DNA of 64,000 nt from Candidatus Saccharimonadales bacterium (GTDB lineage Bacteria > Patescibacteriota > Saccharimonadia > Saccharimonadales > EFPC-124), in NCBI GenBank assembly GCA_050730875.1, contig JBOHNX010000001.1, forward strand, positions 361,972-425,971, written 5' to 3'. A program made the position numbers and the translations under genes. Shown in pieces: positions 2,946 through 30,972 of this stretch. The notes below the pieces were generated by a model. The model was not told where the DNA came from, ran no database searches, and saw nothing but the letters and a program-made list of their open reading frames with translations. Position 1 is the first letter of the stretch. Every line of letters begins with the position of its first letter.

Positions 2946-5900
2946 CTACTCTTCTTCTGGCAATTCCTGCAGTTCGCGGGCACCGGTACCGACTGGGATC
3001 TTGCGGCCGATGATCACGTTTTCCTTCAAACCATAGAGGTTGTCGACGCGACCACTGGTGGCTGCATTGATCAGCACGCGGGTAGTGTCTTGGAATGACG
3101 CTGCCGAGAGGAAGCTGTCGCTCCAGATAGACACCTTGGTGATACCAAGCAGCAGCTGCGTAAACTGAGTTGGCGCCTTGCCTTCAGCTACAAGCTGTTT
3201 GTTGGTTTCGACCACTGCGGCTTTCGATACGATGTCGCCAGTTACGAACAAGCTGTCGCCGGGGTCTTCAATCTGTACACGGCTGAACATCTGACGCACG
3301 ATGATCTCAAGGTGCTTGTCGGCAATGTTCTGGCCCTGTGCAGCGTAGATGCGCAACACTTCGTTAATCATGTAGCGCTGAGTAGCTTCTACACCCTTCA
3401 GGCGCATGAGGTCGTGCAGGTTGAGTGAACCGTTGGTTAGGCGGTCACCTGCTTCAACCTTGGCACCATCGATAACAGTTAGCTGCTTGAAGCCTGGGAT
3501 TTCGTAGCGAACCGGCGTTTGGTTGCTGCTGTTGAGCACAATGTGCTCTTTGGTTACTTCAACCACGCCGTCGAATGGTGCTGTTACTGGGCGGTCTTCG
3601 TTCTTATCTGAAGCGAGGACGTCGCCAACCAGCACTTGCGTACCACTCTTCACGCGAGCCTTGCGGCCATCGAGTTCGAGTTTTTCGGTGCGACCCTTCT
3701 CAGGAGTAACTTGCACGACATATTGGTCGCCGTCTTCCCAAACTTGGGCAGTACCGGCAATCTCGGTCATGTAAGCTTGACCCTTTGGAGTGCGAGCTTC
3801 GAACAACTCATCGACACGAGGCAGACCCTGGGTGATGTCTTCACCAGCCACACCACCGGCGTGGAAGGTACGAAGCGTCAACTGGGTGCCAGGTTCACCG
3901 ACTGACTGAGCAGCGATAACACCAACCGGTTGGTAGGCGTTAATGAGCTCGTTGGTTGCCATGTCGATACCGTAGCTCTTTTGCGAAATACCGCGGAGCG
4001 ATTGGCAACTGAGCACACTCATAATCTTCACTTCGGTAATCTTCTCGTCTGCTTCGATTGCGTCAGAAATTTCGCGGGTCAGCAGCTCGCCCTTCTTAAC
4101 GTGACCCTTCACGTCTTCGGCTGCGTAGCGGCCAAACAAGCGGTCGCCAAAGGCGATCATGGTTTCTTCAGACTCAGCGCGGTAAATTGCGAAGCCTGGG
4201 TCCTCAGTTTCATCTTCGATAGTGAAGATATCCTGGCTCACGTCTACCAGACGTCGGGTTAGGTAACCTGAGTCGGCGGTCTTGAGCGCGGTGTCAATCA
4301 AACCTTTACGTGCACCACGGGTGGCGACGAAGGCTTCCAGCGGGCTCAGACCCTTCTTGTAGCTAGAGCGGATCGGCAGCTCGATTTCTTTACCGGTCGC
4401 GTCAACCATCACACCAATCATGGCGGTGGCAAGCTTGACGTTCGAGATGTCACCACGAGCACCAGAGTCAACCATCACAGCAACCGAGGTATCTTCTTTT
4501 GCGAGACGTTTTTGCAGTACTTCGAGCACCTTCTTGTCGATTGCACGCCAGGTAGCCACGGTCAGGCTGTAGCGCTCGTCGTCGGTAATTAAACCTTGTT
4601 CGTACTGGTCAGAGATCTTCGCAGCACGCTCTTCACCTTCGCCGATGATGGCATCGAGCCCATCAACGTTGAAGTAGTCGGTCATACCGGTCGAAACGGC
4701 ACCCAAGGTTGCGAATTCGAGCGCGAGATCTTTTACTTCGTCGGCAATGTGGGCAGCGGTTTCTGAACCGTAGCGTTCGAAGACTTTCGCCAGCACCTTA
4801 CCAAGCTTCTTCTTGCCCATAACGTCTTCGACGTACTTGAAGTCTTCAGGTAGAATTTCGTTAAAGTACACGCGGCCCAAAGTGGTTTCGCGAGTCTCAC
4901 CCTTTACAGGAACAATGATTGGGGTTTGCAGTTTGATTACGTCGTGCTCGTAGGCGTAAATTGCTTCGTTGACGTTTGCAAAGCGACGTGGCTTCGCAAC
5001 CTGAGCGCTTGGCTTTGGATAGGTCAGGTAGTAACAACCGAGTACGATGTCCTGGCTGATGTTAAGAATTGGCGAACCATCAGCAGGTTTAAGTAGGTTG
5101 TTGGTTGCGCTCATTAGCTCGCGGGCTTCGCGCTGTGCGTCTTCGCTAAGCGGAAGGTGCACGGCCATCTGGTCACCATCGAAGTCGGCGTTGAAACCTT
5201 TACAGACCAATGGGTGCAGCTGGATAGCTTTACCTTCGATCAGCTTAGGCTGGAAGGCCTGAATCGACAGACGGTGCAGCGATGGAGCACGGTTAAGGAG
5301 TACGTATTTCTCCTTAATGACTTCGTCAAGCGCGTCCCAAACTACGCTGTCACTAGCCTCAATAAGGCGAGTTGCGCTTTTAATGTTGTGGGCGTGTTCG
5401 CGAACAAGCAGTTCTGCGATAACAAATGGCTTAAAGAGTTCAAGTGCCATAAGTTTTGGCAGACCACACTGGTTAATCTTGAGCTCTGGACCAGCCACAA
5501 TAACTGAACGGCCTGAGTAGTCAACACGCTTACCAAGCAGGTTCTGGCGGAAGCGACCTTGTTTACCCTTGAGCATATCGCTAAGGCTCTTCAAACGGCG
5601 GCGGCCACCAGTTGCGCTGACAGCGCGGCCACTCCGTGCAGCCGAATTGTCGATGAGCGCATCAACAGCTTCCTGAAGCATGCGTTGCTCGTTACGGCGG
5701 ATAACTTCCGGCGCGTTGAGGTCAATCAGCTTCTTCAAGCGGTTGTTACGGTTGATCACGCGACGATAGAGATCGTTGAGGTCGCTGGTTGCAAAACGGC
5801 CACCTGTTAGCTGTACCATCGGACGAAGATCCGGTGGGATAACTGGCAGAACAGTCAAGCACATGCTGGTTGGCTTAATGCCAGCGCGCAGCATACCCTC

Positions 5901-6741: not shown

Positions 6742-10116
<3,375 letters not shown>

Positions 10117-10328: not shown

Positions 10329-10925
10329 TTACGCTTTTTCGAGCACGCCGTCGATAAGGCCGTACTTCTTTGATTCTTCGGCGCCCATCCAGAAGTCACG
10401 TTCTACATCACGTTCGATCTTGCTGATTTTTTGGCCGGTGTTTTTAGCTAGAATTTGGTTGAGCTGCTTTTTAACTCGCAAACTTTCTTCGAGGTCAATC
10501 TGCATATCGGTAACTGTACCACGTGCAGCGCTAGATGGCTGGTGCACCATCATTTTACTGTGCGGCAAGGCAAAGCGTTTGCCTTTGGCACCTGCAGCAA
10601 GCAAGAAGGCGCCCATGCTGGCGGCGAGGCCGACACAAATGGTTTGCACATCTGGCTTGATGTATTGCATGGTGTCAAAAATAGCGAGGCCGTCGTATAC
10701 GCTGCCGCCGGGACTGTTGATGTAGAGGTAAACATCTTTTTTAGGATCCTCGTACGCCAAGTGCAGCATTTGGGCGATGATGAGGTTTGCGGTGTGTTGG
10801 TTAACGTCGTCACCTAGGAAAATGATGCGCTCTTTTAACAGACGGCTGTAAATATCGTACGCGCGCTCCCCCAGATGCGTTTGTTCGATGACCGTTGGGA
10901 CAAGATAATTGCGAGGTGTATTCAT
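10329..10925 (-). CDS. clpP: ATP-dependent Clp protease proteolytic subunit
   Basis: [27 protein letters not shown], with the Ser ([11 protein letters not shown]) and His (MVHQP) catalytic context. The track start at 10952 is a GTG inside the CIRCE element, so ATG 10925 ([15 protein letters not shown]) is preferred. Confidence 0.95.
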
Positions 10926-10945
10926 AGTAATTTGAGTATATGAAA

Positions 10946-10972
10946 TTAGCACTCGCTATGCAAGAGTGCTAA
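10946..10972 (-). promoter_or_regulatory. CIRCE element (HrcA operator) with embedded clpP promoter
   Basis: TTAGCACTC-GCTATGCAA-GAGTGCTAA is a perfect match to TTAGCACTC-N9-GAGTGCTAA. On the gene strand the spacer gives TTGCAT (10963-10958), then 17 nt, then TATACT (10940-10935). Confidence 0.85.
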
Positions 10973-11259
10973 TCGTCATCTAACGCATCTGCGTACGGCC
11001 GGCATACCTTCTCGCCGAATTCATCTAACTTATCTGAGAGGTCGGGATAGAATTGCTTTATCCCTCCGCCATACTCATGCACTGCTCTTTCAACCGATTC
11101 TTCGTGGGGCCGCCGCTGCCAGCGAAGTTCAACATATCTTGCAGCGATGCACTTGCTCAAATTATCGATAAACGTATTCGGGAGATTGCGCGCCCGCAGC
11201 TCGGCCAAAAAATCTTGCCCATTGTGACGTTCGTAGTAATACTGGCTCTCGGGCGACAT
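10969..11259 (-). CDS. Hypothetical protein (96 aa)
   Basis: ORF between tig and clpP. Its TAG stop (10971-10969) lies inside the CIRCE right arm. I recognise no family. Confidence 0.5.
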   Translation of the reverse strand: MSPESQYYYERHNGQDFLAELRARNLPNTFIDNLSKCIAARYVELRWQRRPHEESVERAVHEYGGGIKQFYPDLSDKLDEFGEKVCRPYADALDDD

Positions 11260-11262
11260 ATG

Positions 11263-12546
11263 CTACTTGGTGTTGAGTTCTACGAGGCGGTCAACGGTCT
11301 TTTCGGTCAACAGGCGGTTGGCAAGATCGCGGCGAGCTTCGGGAGTGTCAAGCTGTTCGCGCATGCTTGGGTCGTTGTAGTAGTTGAGCAGTTCTTGCAT
11401 GCGAGCGTTCAGGTCATCAATCGAAACTTCAATTCTTTCTGCCTTGCTAAGTTCAGCCAGGGCTAGGCCAACCTGTACGCGGCGGATGGCTTGCTCGCGA
11501 AGCTCTTTGTTGCGCCACTGCTCTTTGGTGGTGCCTTGTTGCTCAAGATACTGCTCCAGCGTCATGCCTCGGTACATCAGGTTCTGCACAAAGTCGCGCT
11601 CGATAGCGGCCACTTGGTCAGTAACCAGCACTTCCGGCGTTGGGACGTCGCTTGCCTTCACTAGCTGTTCAACTAATGAATCTTTGAGCTTGTCGACTGC
11701 TTCGCGCTCTTTTTGGTCGATCAGCTCGCGGCGAATGTCAGCTTTGAATTCATCAACAGTTTTAAAAGGACCAGTCTTGGCTGCAAATTCATCGTTTAGT
11801 TCCGGCAGGGCAACTTCTTTGACGGCATTTACCGTTACGGCAAAGTTCACCTTAGCACCAGCCAGTGGCTTGTGTTGGTAATCCTTAGGGAATGTCAGCG
11901 GCAAGGCAAACTTGTCGCCAGCTTTTTTACCAACCAGACCTTCTTCGAAGCCAGGGATAAAGGTGTTTGAGCCAAGCGCAAGCGGGTAATCCTTACCTGT
12001 AGCGCCGGCAACTTCTTTACCATCTTGGTCGGTACCAACAAAGTCGATGACGACTTCGTCGCCGTCTTTAGCAGCACGGTCAACGTCGTTTTTGGTTGCC
12101 ATGCCTTGGCGCATGCGGTCAATAACTTCCTGCACGTCACTGTCGGCTACCTCAGCCTTTTCTTTCTTGGCTTTGAGCTTTTTATAGTCGCCAAGCTTAA
12201 TGTCTGGAATAATTTCGACTTCGGCGGTGTATTCGAGCTCCTGACCAGGCACAAATTTCTTTATGTCAACTTTTGGTCGGTCGAGCGGCGTGAGCTTCTC
12301 TTTCTCGAATGCGTCGATAGTAAACAGGTTTACTGCGTCTTCGAGAAGCTCTGCGTTGAGCACATTTGCATCGAGGTTTTTCTCGGCAACATTAGCCGGT
12401 ACTTTGCCAGGACGAAAGCCAGCAACTTTCATATCTTTTGCGAGTCGGTGCAGTGTTTTTTGTTTAACGCTTGTGAGGTCGTCGGCACTAACAGTGACCG
12501 TTACGAGTACTTGGGAGCTTGAGATTTTTTTAACTGAATATGTCAT
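11263..12546 (-). CDS. tig: Trigger factor
   Basis: 427 aa. The N-terminal ribosome-binding region contains GFRPGKVP, followed by an FKBP-like middle and C-terminal arm domains. tig-clpP adjacency is classic. Confidence 0.95.
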   Translation of the reverse strand: MTYSVKKISSSQVLVTVTVSADDLTSVKQKTLHRLAKDMKVAGFRPGKVPANVAEKNLDANVLNAELLEDAVNLFTIDAFEKEKLTPLDRPKVDIKKFVPGQELEYTAEVEIIPDIKLGDYKKLKAKKEKAEVADSDVQEVIDRMRQGMATKNDVDRAAKDGDEVVIDFVGTDQDGKEVAGATGKDYPLALGSNTFIPGFEEGLVGKKAGDKFALPLTFPKDYQHKPLAGAKVNFAVTVNAVKEVALPELNDEFAAKTGPFKTVDEFKADIRRELIDQKEREAVDKLKDSLVEQLVKASDVPTPEVLVTDQVAAIERDFVQNLMYRGMTLEQYLEQQGTTKEQWRNKELREQAIRRVQVGLALAELSKAERIEVSIDDLNARMQELLNYYNDPSMREQLDTPEARRDLANRLLTEKTVDRLVELNTK

Positions 12547-27387: not shown

Positions 27388-28365
27388 TCAGTTAGTTGGT
27401 ACCGTTTGGTATGTACTGTCTAGGCTGTGGTAGAGGTCATTTTGGGCAGCAACCTCGTTATTGCGCTGTACGACGAGCGCATTATAACGGCTGACTAGTG
27501 AGCGAGTTTCGTTTACGGTGGCGTTATAGGAGCGCACCATTGCATTGTAGCCCGGAACGGCCTGGTTGTATGCGTCTGGGTCGCTATTTCTAAGTTGGTT
27601 AAGCCTAGCTGATTCGGCATTGATTTCGCGCTGGCGGTTATCGAGCTCTGTGTAGTTTACGTCAATTTGCTTCTTTAGGTCCGCAAGCTGAGCGTCCAGC
27701 AAGGCTAGCCGTTCTTTCGAAGCAGTAAACACCCCTTCGTATGCTTCGGCAAGACCCACAACCTTATTTCTATCTTTTAAGTACTGTGTATAGTACGCTT
27801 CTAGTTCTGGCGATAGATCGCGGAATTCGGTGCCTAAAATAGAGTGCATTTCGTTTAGCAGCTGCCCAGGCTCGTGCTTGTTATACAAATTAATAAGCCC
27901 CTGCAGCCTGTCGTCCTTTGTTTTAGCCAGCTGAGCTTCGAGTAGCTTGTTGACGCGCTGCTTTTCGCTGTCATCTAGTCGGTCGTATGCAGCGTGGAGC
28001 ATTTCGTGCGCGGCCGTCACCTCTTTAACACCACTAAAACGTGCGTCGGTGACGTTATAGATGTAAATACGCTGCATGGCATAACAGCCGAGCACCAGAC
28101 TTTCTTCGCCAGTGTCAGTACAGTTTTTATTGAAGGTGCTGCGATCGTTCACTTCCGGGTGCGAGACATAAAAGACCGTTCGCCCTTTACCCTCCATGGT
28201 CGCTGCATCTGCTAGTGCTACAATTCCCGCCGGGGGCGTATAGCCATTGAGGCGCCACCAATCGATGAGCTCTTGGCGGTTAAGAAATGTCCAAATTGCG
28301 GCACCAATAATCGCTATACTCAGCGCAAGATTAGCGATTCCCCACCAAACGTGTCGTTCACGCAT
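27388..28365 (-). CDS. Hypothetical membrane-anchored protein with HExxH motif and a C-terminal coiled coil
   Basis: 325 aa. N-terminal TM helix (WWGIANLALSIAIIGAAIWTF), an HEMLH motif, and a long heptad-like Q/N/L-rich C-terminus. Confidence 0.7.
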   Translation of the reverse strand: MRERHVWWGIANLALSIAIIGAAIWTFLNRQELIDWWRLNGYTPPAGIVALADAATMEGKGRTVFYVSHPEVNDRSTFNKNCTDTGEESLVLGCYAMQRIYIYNVTDARFSGVKEVTAAHEMLHAAYDRLDDSEKQRVNKLLEAQLAKTKDDRLQGLINLYNKHEPGQLLNEMHSILGTEFRDLSPELEAYYTQYLKDRNKVVGLAEAYEGVFTASKERLALLDAQLADLKKQIDVNYTELDNRQREINAESARLNQLRNSDPDAYNQAVPGYNAMVRSYNATVNETRSLVSRYNALVVQRNNEVAAQNDLYHSLDSTYQTVPTN

Positions 28366-28379
28366 GGGTAGCTACCTTT

Positions 28380-30860
28380 TTACTCGGTGTGATTTGCGAA
28401 AGCCAGTTCGCCTTTTTTGGTCGTGACATCGATGACATCACCCTTAGTATACCGCTCTTCAAGCAAACCGTTGGCAATTTCGTCTTCAACGGTGTCTTGA
28501 ATAACGCGTCGGAGTGGGCGTACGCCGTTTTGAGCATCGTAGCCCTGCTCGAGCAGCGCTTTTTTGGCGGCAATACCAACCTTCACAGCGACACCTCGTC
28601 GTTGCAGGCGCTTGCCGAGTTTCGCGATTTCGATATCAAGAATCTTGCTGACTTCATGCTTAGTAAGTGCCTTAAAGACAATTATTTTATCCAGGCGGTT
28701 GATGAGCTCTGGACGCATGAAGCTCTTGAGGTCGGCTAACGCAGCCTCGGTATTTTGCTCGTGGACGTCTTCTAGCTCGTCATGGTCCTTTTTAGTTTCG
28801 GCACGGAAACCTAGGTTTGCTTCGCGCTGCATTTTTTCAGCGCCCAAGTTGCTGGTAAGGATGATAACCGTGTTAGTAAAGTCTACCTTGCGGCCTTTGG
28901 CGTCAGTCAGACTACCGTCCTCCATAATCTGCAGTAGAATGTTCAGCACTTCTGGGTGGGCTTTTTCGATTTCGTCAAAGAGCACCAGACTGTACGGCTG
29001 ACGGCGAATTTTATCGGTCAATTGCCCTGCATCGTCATAGCCCACGTAGCCTGCTGGGGCACCGACCAAGCGTGCGGTCGTGTGGCGCTCGGCAAATTCA
29101 CTCATATCGATTTTAATCAGTGCATCTTCCGAACCAAGCAGTTCGCGCGCAAGCACACGGGCAAGCTCTGTTTTACCCACGCCAGTTGGGCCCATAAACA
29201 TGAACGATCCGATCGGGCGGCGCCCCTCACCAATGCCAGAGCGGTTGCGGCGAATCGCGCGGGCAACGGCGTTAATGGCATCGGCCTGACCAACAATGTG
29301 CTTAGCCAAATATTTTTCGAGGTTTAGCAAGTACTTAGCTTCGGACTTGATAACTTTTTCAACCGGCACGCCAGTCATGGTTGCAATGGTGTGCGCAACA
29401 TCATCCGATGAAATAATGAGGGTGTCATGATTTTGCTGATCATTACGCATCTTGTTGAGCTGCGTGTTTAGCTGGCTCATGCGCGTTTTGTAATGCGCGG
29501 CGCGCTCGTAATCTTCAGCCTCGACCGCTTCTTCCATGCGCTCGGTAATAACTTTAAGCTCGCGAGAGAGTTTGCGTACCTCAAGCGGTGCGCGGCCACG
29601 GTCTACCTTTACCTGCGCAGAGGTTTCATCCAAAACATCAATTGCTTTATCGGGCATGTAGCGGTCGTTAATATACCGCTTGGCGAGATATGCAATGTCG
29701 CTCAATACCTCGTCGCCTACTTCGACGCCATGGTGTTTTTCGTAGTGCCGCTTCAAACCTCTGAGGATGGCCAGCGTTTCTTTAACGGTTGGCTCAGGCA
29801 CGATAACGGTCTGGAAGCGGCGTTCGAGCGCGGCATCTTTTTCGATGTGCTTGCGGTATTCATCGAGCGTAGTTGCACCAACGAGGCGTAGTTTACCGCG
29901 AGCCAATGCAGGTTTGAGCATGTTCGCGGCATCGATTGCACCTTCGGCTGCACCAGCGCCAACCAGCAAGTGGAGCTCGTCAATAAATACTATGGCGTTA
30001 TCGTCACTAATAAGTTCTTCGAGCAATTTCTTCAGACGCTCTTCAAATTCACCACGGTATTTAGTACCGGCAATCATACCTGCAAGGTCAAGTGTCACAA
30101 TGCGCTTGTCTAGCAGGTGGTCGGGCACTTCCTCGTTAACAATGCGCTGCGCCAAACCTTCGACAATGGCAGTTTTACCAACGCCTGGCTCGCCCAGCAA
30201 GACTGGGTTATTTTTGGTGCGGCGGCCCAAGATGGTGATCATGCGCTTAATTTGCGTATCGCGGCCGACTACTGGGTCGAGCTCGCCGGCACGTGCGCGT
30301 TCTGTTAAATCAGTACCAAAGTAATCGAGTGCTGTTTGGCGGCGATTGCGACGACGGGTGCGCACATTTTTACCCTCGTTGGCGCTATCGTATTCAAACT
30401 GCTGCCGATTAAGATATTGCTCGAGGTCGCCCGTGAGCGAATCGATATCGACACTCATGTCGCGCAACAGCACAGTAGCACGAGCATTCTTTTGCGTCAG
30501 GATGCTGTACAGGATGTGCTCGGTGCCACAGTAATCCTGGTTAAACTCCTGCGCAATGTCCCAGCTAAGTTTTAGAGTTAATTTAGCTGTTTCGCTCAAA
30601 CCCTTTGCGCCGGTGCTGACCACCAAGGCGCGTGGCGTTAAATTAAGCGCCAAGCGCGCACGGTCAAGCGTAACGCCTTGGCCTGCCAGGAGTTTTGCGC
30701 CTACCGAAGAGTCTTGGCTTAAAACACCGAGCAAAATGTGCTCGGTGCCGATGTACGCAGAGCCGAGGCTACGCGCTATGCCGTCGGCATGCTGCAGGCT
30801 CGACCGTGCGTTATCAGTTAAATGGTTTACAAAATCGTGAAGATCGCCAGTTGGCATCAT
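28380..30860 (-). CDS. clpC: ATP-dependent Clp protease ATP-binding subunit ClpC
   Basis: Two Clp_N repeats ([20 protein letters not shown]), Walker A motifs GEPGVGKT and GPTGVGKT, a UVR-like [12 protein letters not shown] segment, and an LGF ClpP-docking loop. The track start at 30881 is TTG; ATG 30860/30857 is preferred. Confidence 0.93.
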
Positions 30861-30913
30861 ATCTCTAAATCTACCTTCCAAAGTGCATTACACTGCATTT
30901 TTAGTATAAAAAA

Positions 30914-30940
30914 TTAGCACTCCGTATGCAAGAGTGCTAA
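30914..30940 (-). promoter_or_regulatory. CIRCE element (HrcA operator) with embedded clpC promoter
   Basis: TTAGCACTC-CGTATGCAA-GAGTGCTAA is a perfect consensus match. On the gene strand TTGCAT (30931-30926), 17 nt, TATACT (30908-30903). Confidence 0.85.
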
Positions 30941-30972
30941 CTAATAAAATATTGTCCGCTTTCGAGCCGCTT

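Follow-up and report, generated by a model that had tools for sequence, protein, structure and literature searches.

Introduction

Class I heat-shock control of the Bacillus subtilis type acts on the dnaK and groE operons through the repressor HrcA and its operator, the controlling inverted repeat of chaperone expression (CIRCE). In the classical arrangement CIRCE coincides with the transcription start or lies downstream of it. Here we describe two CIRCE elements that lie ahead of the protease gene clpP and the ATPase gene clpC in the genome of a Candidatus Saccharimonadales bacterium (assembly GCA_050730875.1, contig JBOHNX010000001.1, positions 361,972 to 425,971 of the forward strand). The whole stretch of DNA that was analysed, 64 kb in length, is called the window below, and positions are counted from its first letter. 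From the comparative evidence presented here, the palindrome at 10946-10972 is very probably a genuine HrcA operator, fused with a sigma-70-type promoter of clpP and belonging to an HrcA regulon that spans the phylum.

HrcA control of protease and Clp genes has precedents. The HrcA regulon of Mycoplasma pneumoniae comprises dnaK, dnaJ, groESL, clpB, lon and pepA, and the layout at one of its sites is tig-CIRCE-lon (PMC7737663). Dual control of clpP by CtsR and HrcA in Streptococcus salivarius (Chastanet & Msadek 2003, cited in PMC3842655) and the assignment of Lactobacillus gasseri clpL to the HrcA regulon (Suokko et al. 2008) are given here as they appear in the citing passages across PMC3842655, PMC3192767 and PMC7053576. 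In delta-proteobacteria, by contrast, sigma-32 governs clpP, and only groESL, dnaK and rpoH have a CIRCE (PMC545781). Our literature search found no paper linking HrcA or CIRCE to Saccharibacteria, Patescibacteria, the CPR (candidate phyla radiation) or TM7.

Results

CIRCE elements upstream of clpP and clpC

We scanned the window with the CIRCE consensus TTAGCACTC-N9-GAGTGCTAA, in which two inverted 9-bp arms flank a 9-nt spacer, allowing up to three mismatches. The sites ahead of clpP and clpC were the sole matches in the 64 kb and both agreed with the consensus at all 18 arm positions. Only about 0.02 matches were expected by chance, and none of 100 dinucleotide-preserving shuffles produced two or more. 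The two sites, the putative promoter elements and the genes behind them are as follows:

10946-10972, no strand: predicted CIRCE operator of clpP, TTAGCACTC-GCTATGCAA-GAGTGCTAA in the plus-strand reading, 18/18 arm match
10958-10963, minus strand: putative clpP -35, TTGCAT, within the CIRCE spacer
10935-10940, minus strand: putative clpP -10, TATACT, exactly 17 nt past the -35, with the ATG (10925-10923) 9 nt further on
10329-10925, minus strand: clpP, 198 aa, Pfam CLP_protease, 2e-81
30914-30940, no strand: predicted CIRCE operator of clpC, TTAGCACTC-CGTATGCAA-GAGTGCTAA in the plus-strand reading, 18/18 arm match
30926-30931, minus strand: putative clpC -35, TTGCAT, within the spacer of the clpC CIRCE
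30903-30908, minus strand: putative clpC -10, TATACT, exactly 17 nt past the -35
28380-30860, minus strand: clpC, start codon ATG at 30860, product of 826 aa with two AAA+ modules, Clp_N repeats and a UVR motif

The clpC product also has an LGF ClpP-docking loop at residue 683. Read on the minus strand, the clpP region runs TTAGCACTC-TTGCAT-AGC-GAGTGCTAA-TTTCA-TATACT-CAAATTACT-ATG, and the core is the same in the clpC region, TTAGCACTC-TTGCAT-ACG-GAGTGCTAA-TTTTT-TATACT. A preliminary description of this DNA had proposed a letter-perfect CIRCE at clpP, a -35 hexamer in its spacer (10963-10958) followed after 17 nt by TATACT (10940-10935) and after a further 9 nt by the ATG, an identical construction at clpC, and the stop codon of a 96-aa open reading frame (ORF) lying inside the clpP operator. 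All of these held when checked against the sequence, the stop codon being the TAG at 10969-10971.

The distance from the end of CIRCE to the start codon is 20 nt for clpP and 53 nt for clpC, and both elements overlap the putative -35. Since the similarity of the two cassettes is limited to the constrained operator and promoter positions, with unrelated flanks, a recent duplication was considered unlikely and rejected. The clpP mRNA appears to be leaderless or near-leaderless: its predicted leader is only about 1-3 nt long and has no Shine-Dalgarno sequence, because the usual distance from -10 to transcription start is 6-8 nt and the ATG follows TATACT after 9 nt. The clpC ATG, in contrast, lies behind a leader of some 42 nt in which GGAAGG occurs.

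Conservation upstream of clpP in related loci

Relatives of clpP were gathered by searching with the protein, a route that carries no bias as regards the operator, and 80 metagenomic loci with ClpP 69-80% identical were obtained. The footprint sample consisted of the 73 relatives with at least 100 nt of upstream sequence. CIRCE was accepted with up to three mismatches, and 56 distinct sequences were anchored on the palindrome. We found CIRCE directly upstream of clpP in 69 of the 73 loci. It was absent there from the other four (L014, L022, L046 and L057; ClpP 69-73% identical), so the operator was lost, or never gained, in some lineages. At clpP of L022, a plain TGnTATAAT-type promoter is found where relatives have CIRCE. 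No second CIRCE was present within 10 kb on either side of clpP in the relative loci that carry the clpP site.

Across the 56 distinct sequences, arm positions 4-9 and 19-24 were 100% invariant, and the majority-base frequency in the upstream flanks was only about 35-50%. Because sites were picked at up to three mismatches, part of the arm conservation arises by construction, but the full invariance of 12 positions does not. TTG occupied spacer positions 12-14 in 82-89% of relatives, and a T-run at positions 28-31, after the right arm, was 86-93% conserved. Changes in the outer arms were mostly symmetrical (CTAG...CTAG, ATAG...CTAT, TTGG...CCAA), with complementary bases at the outer pairs 1/27 and 3/25 in 46/55 and 52/55 sequences, respectively. 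Such symmetrical change is the pattern expected of a dimeric protein reading a palindrome.

The palindrome might instead act mainly in RNA, as a terminator or stabilising hairpin for the transcripts of the trigger factor gene tig with the 96-aa ORF (ORF96) upstream of clpP and for those on the nusA side of clpC, its resemblance to CIRCE being secondary. The hairpins are indeed predicted to be stable (-17.1 kcal/mol for the clpP copy and -14.7 kcal/mol for the clpC copy; z -4.2 and -3.4 against shuffles), the clpC CIRCE together with a T6 run (30903-30942, minus strand) was called terminator-like by a scan, and the T-run past the palindrome is among the conserved features. The clpP copy, on the other hand, with its 9-nt loop and just three T residues, drew no terminator call, and the T-run is explained equally well as an AT-rich promoter spacer. 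The palindrome also equals the CIRCE consensus at 18/18 positions. We take the operator function to be primary, because at the 12 arm positions of the distinct relatives the sequence, and not pairing alone, is invariant, and because the same sequence stands ahead of hrcA, dnaK, dnaJ and groESL. A principal role in RNA is thus unlikely, while a secondary insulating role beside the operator function, shielding the clp genes from the tig and nusA units, is possible. At clpC, one element may serve both as terminator of the converging unit upstream (nusA plus a 96-aa ORF) and as operator-promoter. Read-through from tig would meet the CIRCE hairpin ahead of clpP.

The putative promoter was also followed through the relatives. 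In 51 of the 55 distinct clpP relatives, the spacer has a TTG and a -10-like hexamer comes 16-18 nt later, and the -10 shifted together with the TTG: for a TTG at palindrome position 10, 12 or 13 (spacer positions 1, 3 and 4), the -10 started at 33, 35/36 or 37, respectively. The window's clade has the TTG at spacer position 1 and the -10 starting at 33. In many relatives just 6-9 nt (often about 6) separate the -10 from the ATG and there is no Shine-Dalgarno sequence; in others the leader is about 40 nt long and contains GAGG.

The CIRCE-promoter cassette across the CPR

For a survey of the regulon, the genome collection (GTDB) was scanned for TTAGCACTCTTGCATNNNGAGTGCTAA, a pattern in which the TTGCAT spacer is fixed, and at least 119 stretches were obtained; all survey counts below are among the matches listed. 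Matches listed for the window's own CIRCE word were mostly metagenome-assembled genomes (MAGs) of Candidatus Saccharibacteria, Saccharimonadales and Nanosyncoccus. At CPR-labelled sites, a -10 was found 16-18 nt from the TTGCAT in 78/78 cases, the distance being exactly 17 nt in 72; the -10 words were mostly TATAAT, TATACT and TACAAT. In other phyla, sites with the identical spacer had a -10 at this distance in 10/32 cases. Judging from these counts and from the co-shift in clpP relatives, the placement of the putative -35 in the CIRCE spacer appears to be a lineage-specific, selected feature.

A strict scan with the E. coli promoter consensus called neither the clpP nor the clpC promoter, because TTGCAT (3/6) and TATACT (5/6) together score 8/12 and the threshold was 9. 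Our promoter assignment therefore rests on the comparative evidence, which favours it strongly. The low score would suit an arrangement in which the operators are real but most transcripts of clpP and clpC start at promoters elsewhere or arise from read-through out of tig and nusA, so that TTGCAT and TATACT are coincidental and HrcA acts as a roadblock. M. pneumoniae lon offers a parallel, being transcribed from the tig promoter with CIRCE in between (PMC7737663). Coincidental hexamers are hard to reconcile with a -10 that keeps its 16-18 nt from the spacer TTG, and shifts with it, in 51/55 clpP relatives, or with the 78/78 CPR sites set against 10/32 non-CPR sites with the same spacer word. 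The 6-9 nt between -10 and ATG in many relatives likewise fits a dedicated leaderless promoter. We consider transcription mainly from elsewhere very unlikely and retain the operator-promoter fusion as the probable arrangement.

A recognisable downstream ORF was present at 76 CPR-labelled sites. The proportions of genes below are biased, because the survey pattern fixed the TTGCAT spacer and only matches listed were counted:

clpC: 33/76
dnaJ: 25/76
Clp ATPase without N domain: 7/76
clpP: 3/76
clpB: 2/76
dnaK: 2/76
groES, with groEL next after it: 1/76
hsp20: 1/76
hrcA: 1/76
ambiguous gene: 1/76

In the Saccharibacteria loci L227, L235, L238, L252, L281, L287 and L290, the cassette lies upstream of a Clp/Hsp100 ATPase of about 710-730 aa that has no Clp_N and starts near a ...KLDPVIGRDEEIRR motif. 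Four loci labelled Bdellovibrionales or Clostridiales in GTDB (L241, L271, L313 and L295) carry a CPR-style cassette (CIRCE with TTGCAT, 17 nt, TATAAT) before clpB or dnaJ; the downstream proteins resemble those at CPR-labelled sites, and these bins may be mislabelled or contaminated.

An independent sample was provided by clpP genes lying by chance in loci retrieved for another CIRCE site. Ten of these were directly downstream of CIRCE-clpC and two had a CIRCE of their own (2 mismatches). An apparent clpC-clpP operon behind CIRCE was seen in L211, L213, L219, L250, L264, L267, L278, L285, L298 and L307, which are Nanosyncoccus-like, animal-associated Saccharibacteria. In the window's clade, clpP and clpC are 20 kb apart with one operator each.

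Perfect CIRCE was also found in at least 120 IMG/VR contigs classed as viral (L082-L201). One of them, L138, carries three copies with a 49-nt period (5424-5548), and L161 and L146 carry CIRCE pairs. These could be phage-borne chaperonin promoters or misclassified cellular DNA.

HrcA in the phylum and other regulators

A Pfam search of some 40 ORFs of the 64-kb window detected neither hrcA nor groEL nor dnaK. Saccharibacteria do have hrcA-like proteins of 232-252 aa, which match Pfam HrcA with 73 bits (cut-off 22) and also match HrcA_DNA-bdg. Against TIGR00331 they reach 177 bits, under the cut-off of 197, because about 90 central residues (profile positions ~122-210) are missing. The winged-helix domain of the short protein aligns with that of T. 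maritima HrcA (1STZ). There were at least 8000 homologues, of which the best 120 (P0001-P0120) were all 231-260 aa long, as against about 340 aa, and several were labelled at source 'heat-inducible transcriptional repressor' or Saccharibacteria. On the evidence of these homologues, HrcA is widespread in the phylum. Among the short hrcA genes are the following:

L259, 2698-3456, minus strand: short hrcA
L276, 5883-6581, minus strand: short hrcA

The L276 operon has the order CIRCE-hrcA-grpE-dnaK-x-dnaJ. In L321, CIRCE-hrcA-grpE is followed by two further CIRCE before dnaK; these CIRCE-like sites (6878-6949, with one and two mismatches) start 45 nt apart, and a gene for an FAD-linked oxidase is inserted between grpE and dnaK.

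That the window holds no hrcA would agree with a loss of the gene from this genome, in which case the sites would be relics with no current regulatory role or would be read by another protein. Two 18/18 sites would not last without selection, and the phylum in which HrcA is widespread includes genomes with near-identical CIRCE spacers (TTGCATAGT in L248 and L259). We regard this relic reading as extremely unlikely and keep to HrcA as the protein that probably reads the sites.

We also looked for the boxes of other clp regulators. The CtsR heptad repeat RGTCAAANANRGTCAAA, at up to three mismatches, gave four matches in the window against 5.9 expected, none of them near the clp genes, and searches of the neighbours with Pfam and NCBIfam detected no ctsR gene upstream of clpC. 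The ClgR motif is a WCGCYNANRGCGW-like palindrome. At up to one mismatch it matched the window 28 times, with no match in 10926-11000 or 30861-30972.

In transcriptomes of TM7x symbiosis establishment, which cover symbiosis and not heat shock and carry no information on HrcA, clpB and clpP did not follow most other stress-related genes (chaperones, DNA repair). This is counted among the points against the operator reading, as are the absence of hrcA from the window, the failure of both promoters to reach the E. coli-type threshold, the four relatives without CIRCE, the stability of the hairpins, the terminator-like call at clpC and the bias of the survey. On the other side, the proposal of the preliminary description that an HrcA operator covers the promoter of clpP and has a twin at clpC is strongly supported by the 69/73 footprint, the co-shift of TTG and -10, the set of genes behind the cassette, the HrcA homologues of the phylum and the lack of a CtsR box, a ClgR box or a ctsR gene beside the clp genes.

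Gene context in the window

Two neighbours lie upstream of clpP:

11263-12546, minus strand: tig (trigger factor), Pfam Trigger_N, FKBP_C and Trigger_C
10969-11259, minus strand: ORF96, 96 aa, between tig and clpP, with its TAG stop inside the operator

ORF96 starts 4 nt past the tig stop and has no Pfam or NCBIfam match. It was not found in any related clpP locus, where tig abuts clpP, and its sole database match was itself (MGH7196539.1, hypothetical protein ACREGJ_02100, Candidatus Saccharimonadales MAG). As an orphan with neither a family nor a homologue in relatives, it was dismissed as a component of the mechanism. It could be an insertion specific to the lineage or no gene at all, and is probably context, outside the mechanism.

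Upstream of clpC there is a 96-aa ORF with no family assignment and then nusA. Between clpC and radA lies a minus-strand gene (27388-28365) whose 325-aa product has a membrane segment at its N terminus and weak coiled-coil matches only. A PIN-TRAM (YacL-like) gene comes next, so that the Firmicutes-like order clpC...radA...yacL is kept without ctsR, mcsA and mcsB. The window further contains rpsL-rpsG-rpoC-rpoB, a type IV pilus ATPase, a split transketolase and GatAB, at a G+C content of about 50%. Its gene content is consistent with a small-genome organism of the Patescibacteria.

Discussion

Proposed mechanism

From the arrangement of the letters and the B. subtilis model, we infer HrcA binding, repression, a dependence on heat and GroEL, and the position of the transcription start. 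The spacer of the operator would not be read by HrcA, and its 9 nt would house the -35 TTGCAT. The right arm and the T-rich stretch would fill the 17-nt promoter spacer, with TATACT as the -10. Given a start about 7 nt after the -10, the operator would span approximately -44 to -18, so that binding of the HrcA dimer would shut out sigma region 4, deny RNA polymerase the -35 and thereby repress clpP. Unfolded proteins would titrate GroEL, HrcA would become inactive and clpP would be derepressed; through the twin cassette at 30903-30940, clpC would be derepressed likewise.

The extent of the regulon

Across the phylum, the cassette is predicted to serve hrcA-grpE-dnaK, dnaJ, groESL, hsp20, clpB-type ATPases, clpC (in some cases within a clpC-clpP operon) and clpP. 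As the same cassette is carried by chaperone and Clp genes, chaperones and Clp protease would form one HrcA regulon. The predicted inclusion of Clp is a trait of the phylum and not of a single genome, and it has precedents. The preliminary description had argued for a rewired regulon in which Clp is a primary HrcA target. Clp does belong to the predicted HrcA regulon, but as one among several targets, and the change is an expansion and not a swap, because relatives keep CIRCE on dnaK, dnaJ, groESL and hrcA. What we see is best described as an extension of a known system and not a new one: a lineage-level instance in which the predicted HrcA regulon is expanded to the Clp protease and the putative -35 is embedded in the operator.

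We lean, with some reserve, towards a broader view, in which Saccharibacteria, and probably other CPR/Patescibacteria, place their whole cytosolic proteostasis under one shortened HrcA. This would be done by means of a cassette of about 38 bp, with the -35 in the CIRCE spacer, the -10 at exactly 17 nt and often leaderless mRNAs. The members of the network would then be, with the same reserve, DnaK/DnaJ/GrpE, GroESL, the small heat-shock protein, ClpB-type disaggregases, ClpC and ClpP. If true, this would amount to a minimal stress response with a single regulator, of a kind that has yet to be described for the phylum. A large part of bacterial diversity falls within Patescibacteria/CPR, whose gene regulation is almost unexplored. 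A testable regulon is offered here, with one repressor, one recognisable cassette and approximately eight to ten proteostasis operons, Clp protease included. An empirical promoter model also emerges (-35 TTGCA/TTGAC, 17 nt, TATAAT/TATACT, frequent leaderless starts), which should aid annotation and the design of genetic tools. Heat-shock specialists are unlikely to be surprised by Clp in an HrcA regulon; the value of the finding lies in CPR annotation and engineering.

Comparison with known systems

The operator is identical, at 18/18 positions, to that of the B. subtilis-type class I system. As in the classical system, the relatives' hrcA-grpE-dnaK-dnaJ and groESL operons carry CIRCE and the winged helix of HrcA is conserved. 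Unlike in that system, clpP and clpC are the predicted targets, a putative -35 placed in the spacer is overlapped by the operator, and the phylum's HrcA lacks about 90 aa and falls below the TIGR00331 cut-off.

The genes themselves, clpP and clpC, are those that CtsR (class III) and ClgR systems regulate under proteotoxic stress, but neither box lies upstream of them here, and upstream of clpC an ORF and nusA stand in place of ctsR-mcsA-mcsB. With S. salivarius clpP and L. gasseri clpL, the locus shares a CIRCE upstream of clpP or of a Clp ATPase gene. It differs from S. salivarius clpP, where CtsR is a co-regulator, in that no CtsR box was found near the clp genes and no ctsR gene upstream of clpC.

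Mollicutes also combine a reduced genome with what would here likewise be a single HrcA over chaperones and ATP-dependent protease and unfoldase genes, and the layout trigger factor gene-CIRCE-protease gene is common to both. The proteins brought under control are Lon and ClpB there and ClpP and ClpC here, and the Patescibacteria/CPR cassette has its own putative -35 and -10. The parallel with Mycoplasma supports, and does not overturn, the existing idea that genome reduction consolidates protein folding and degradation under HrcA.

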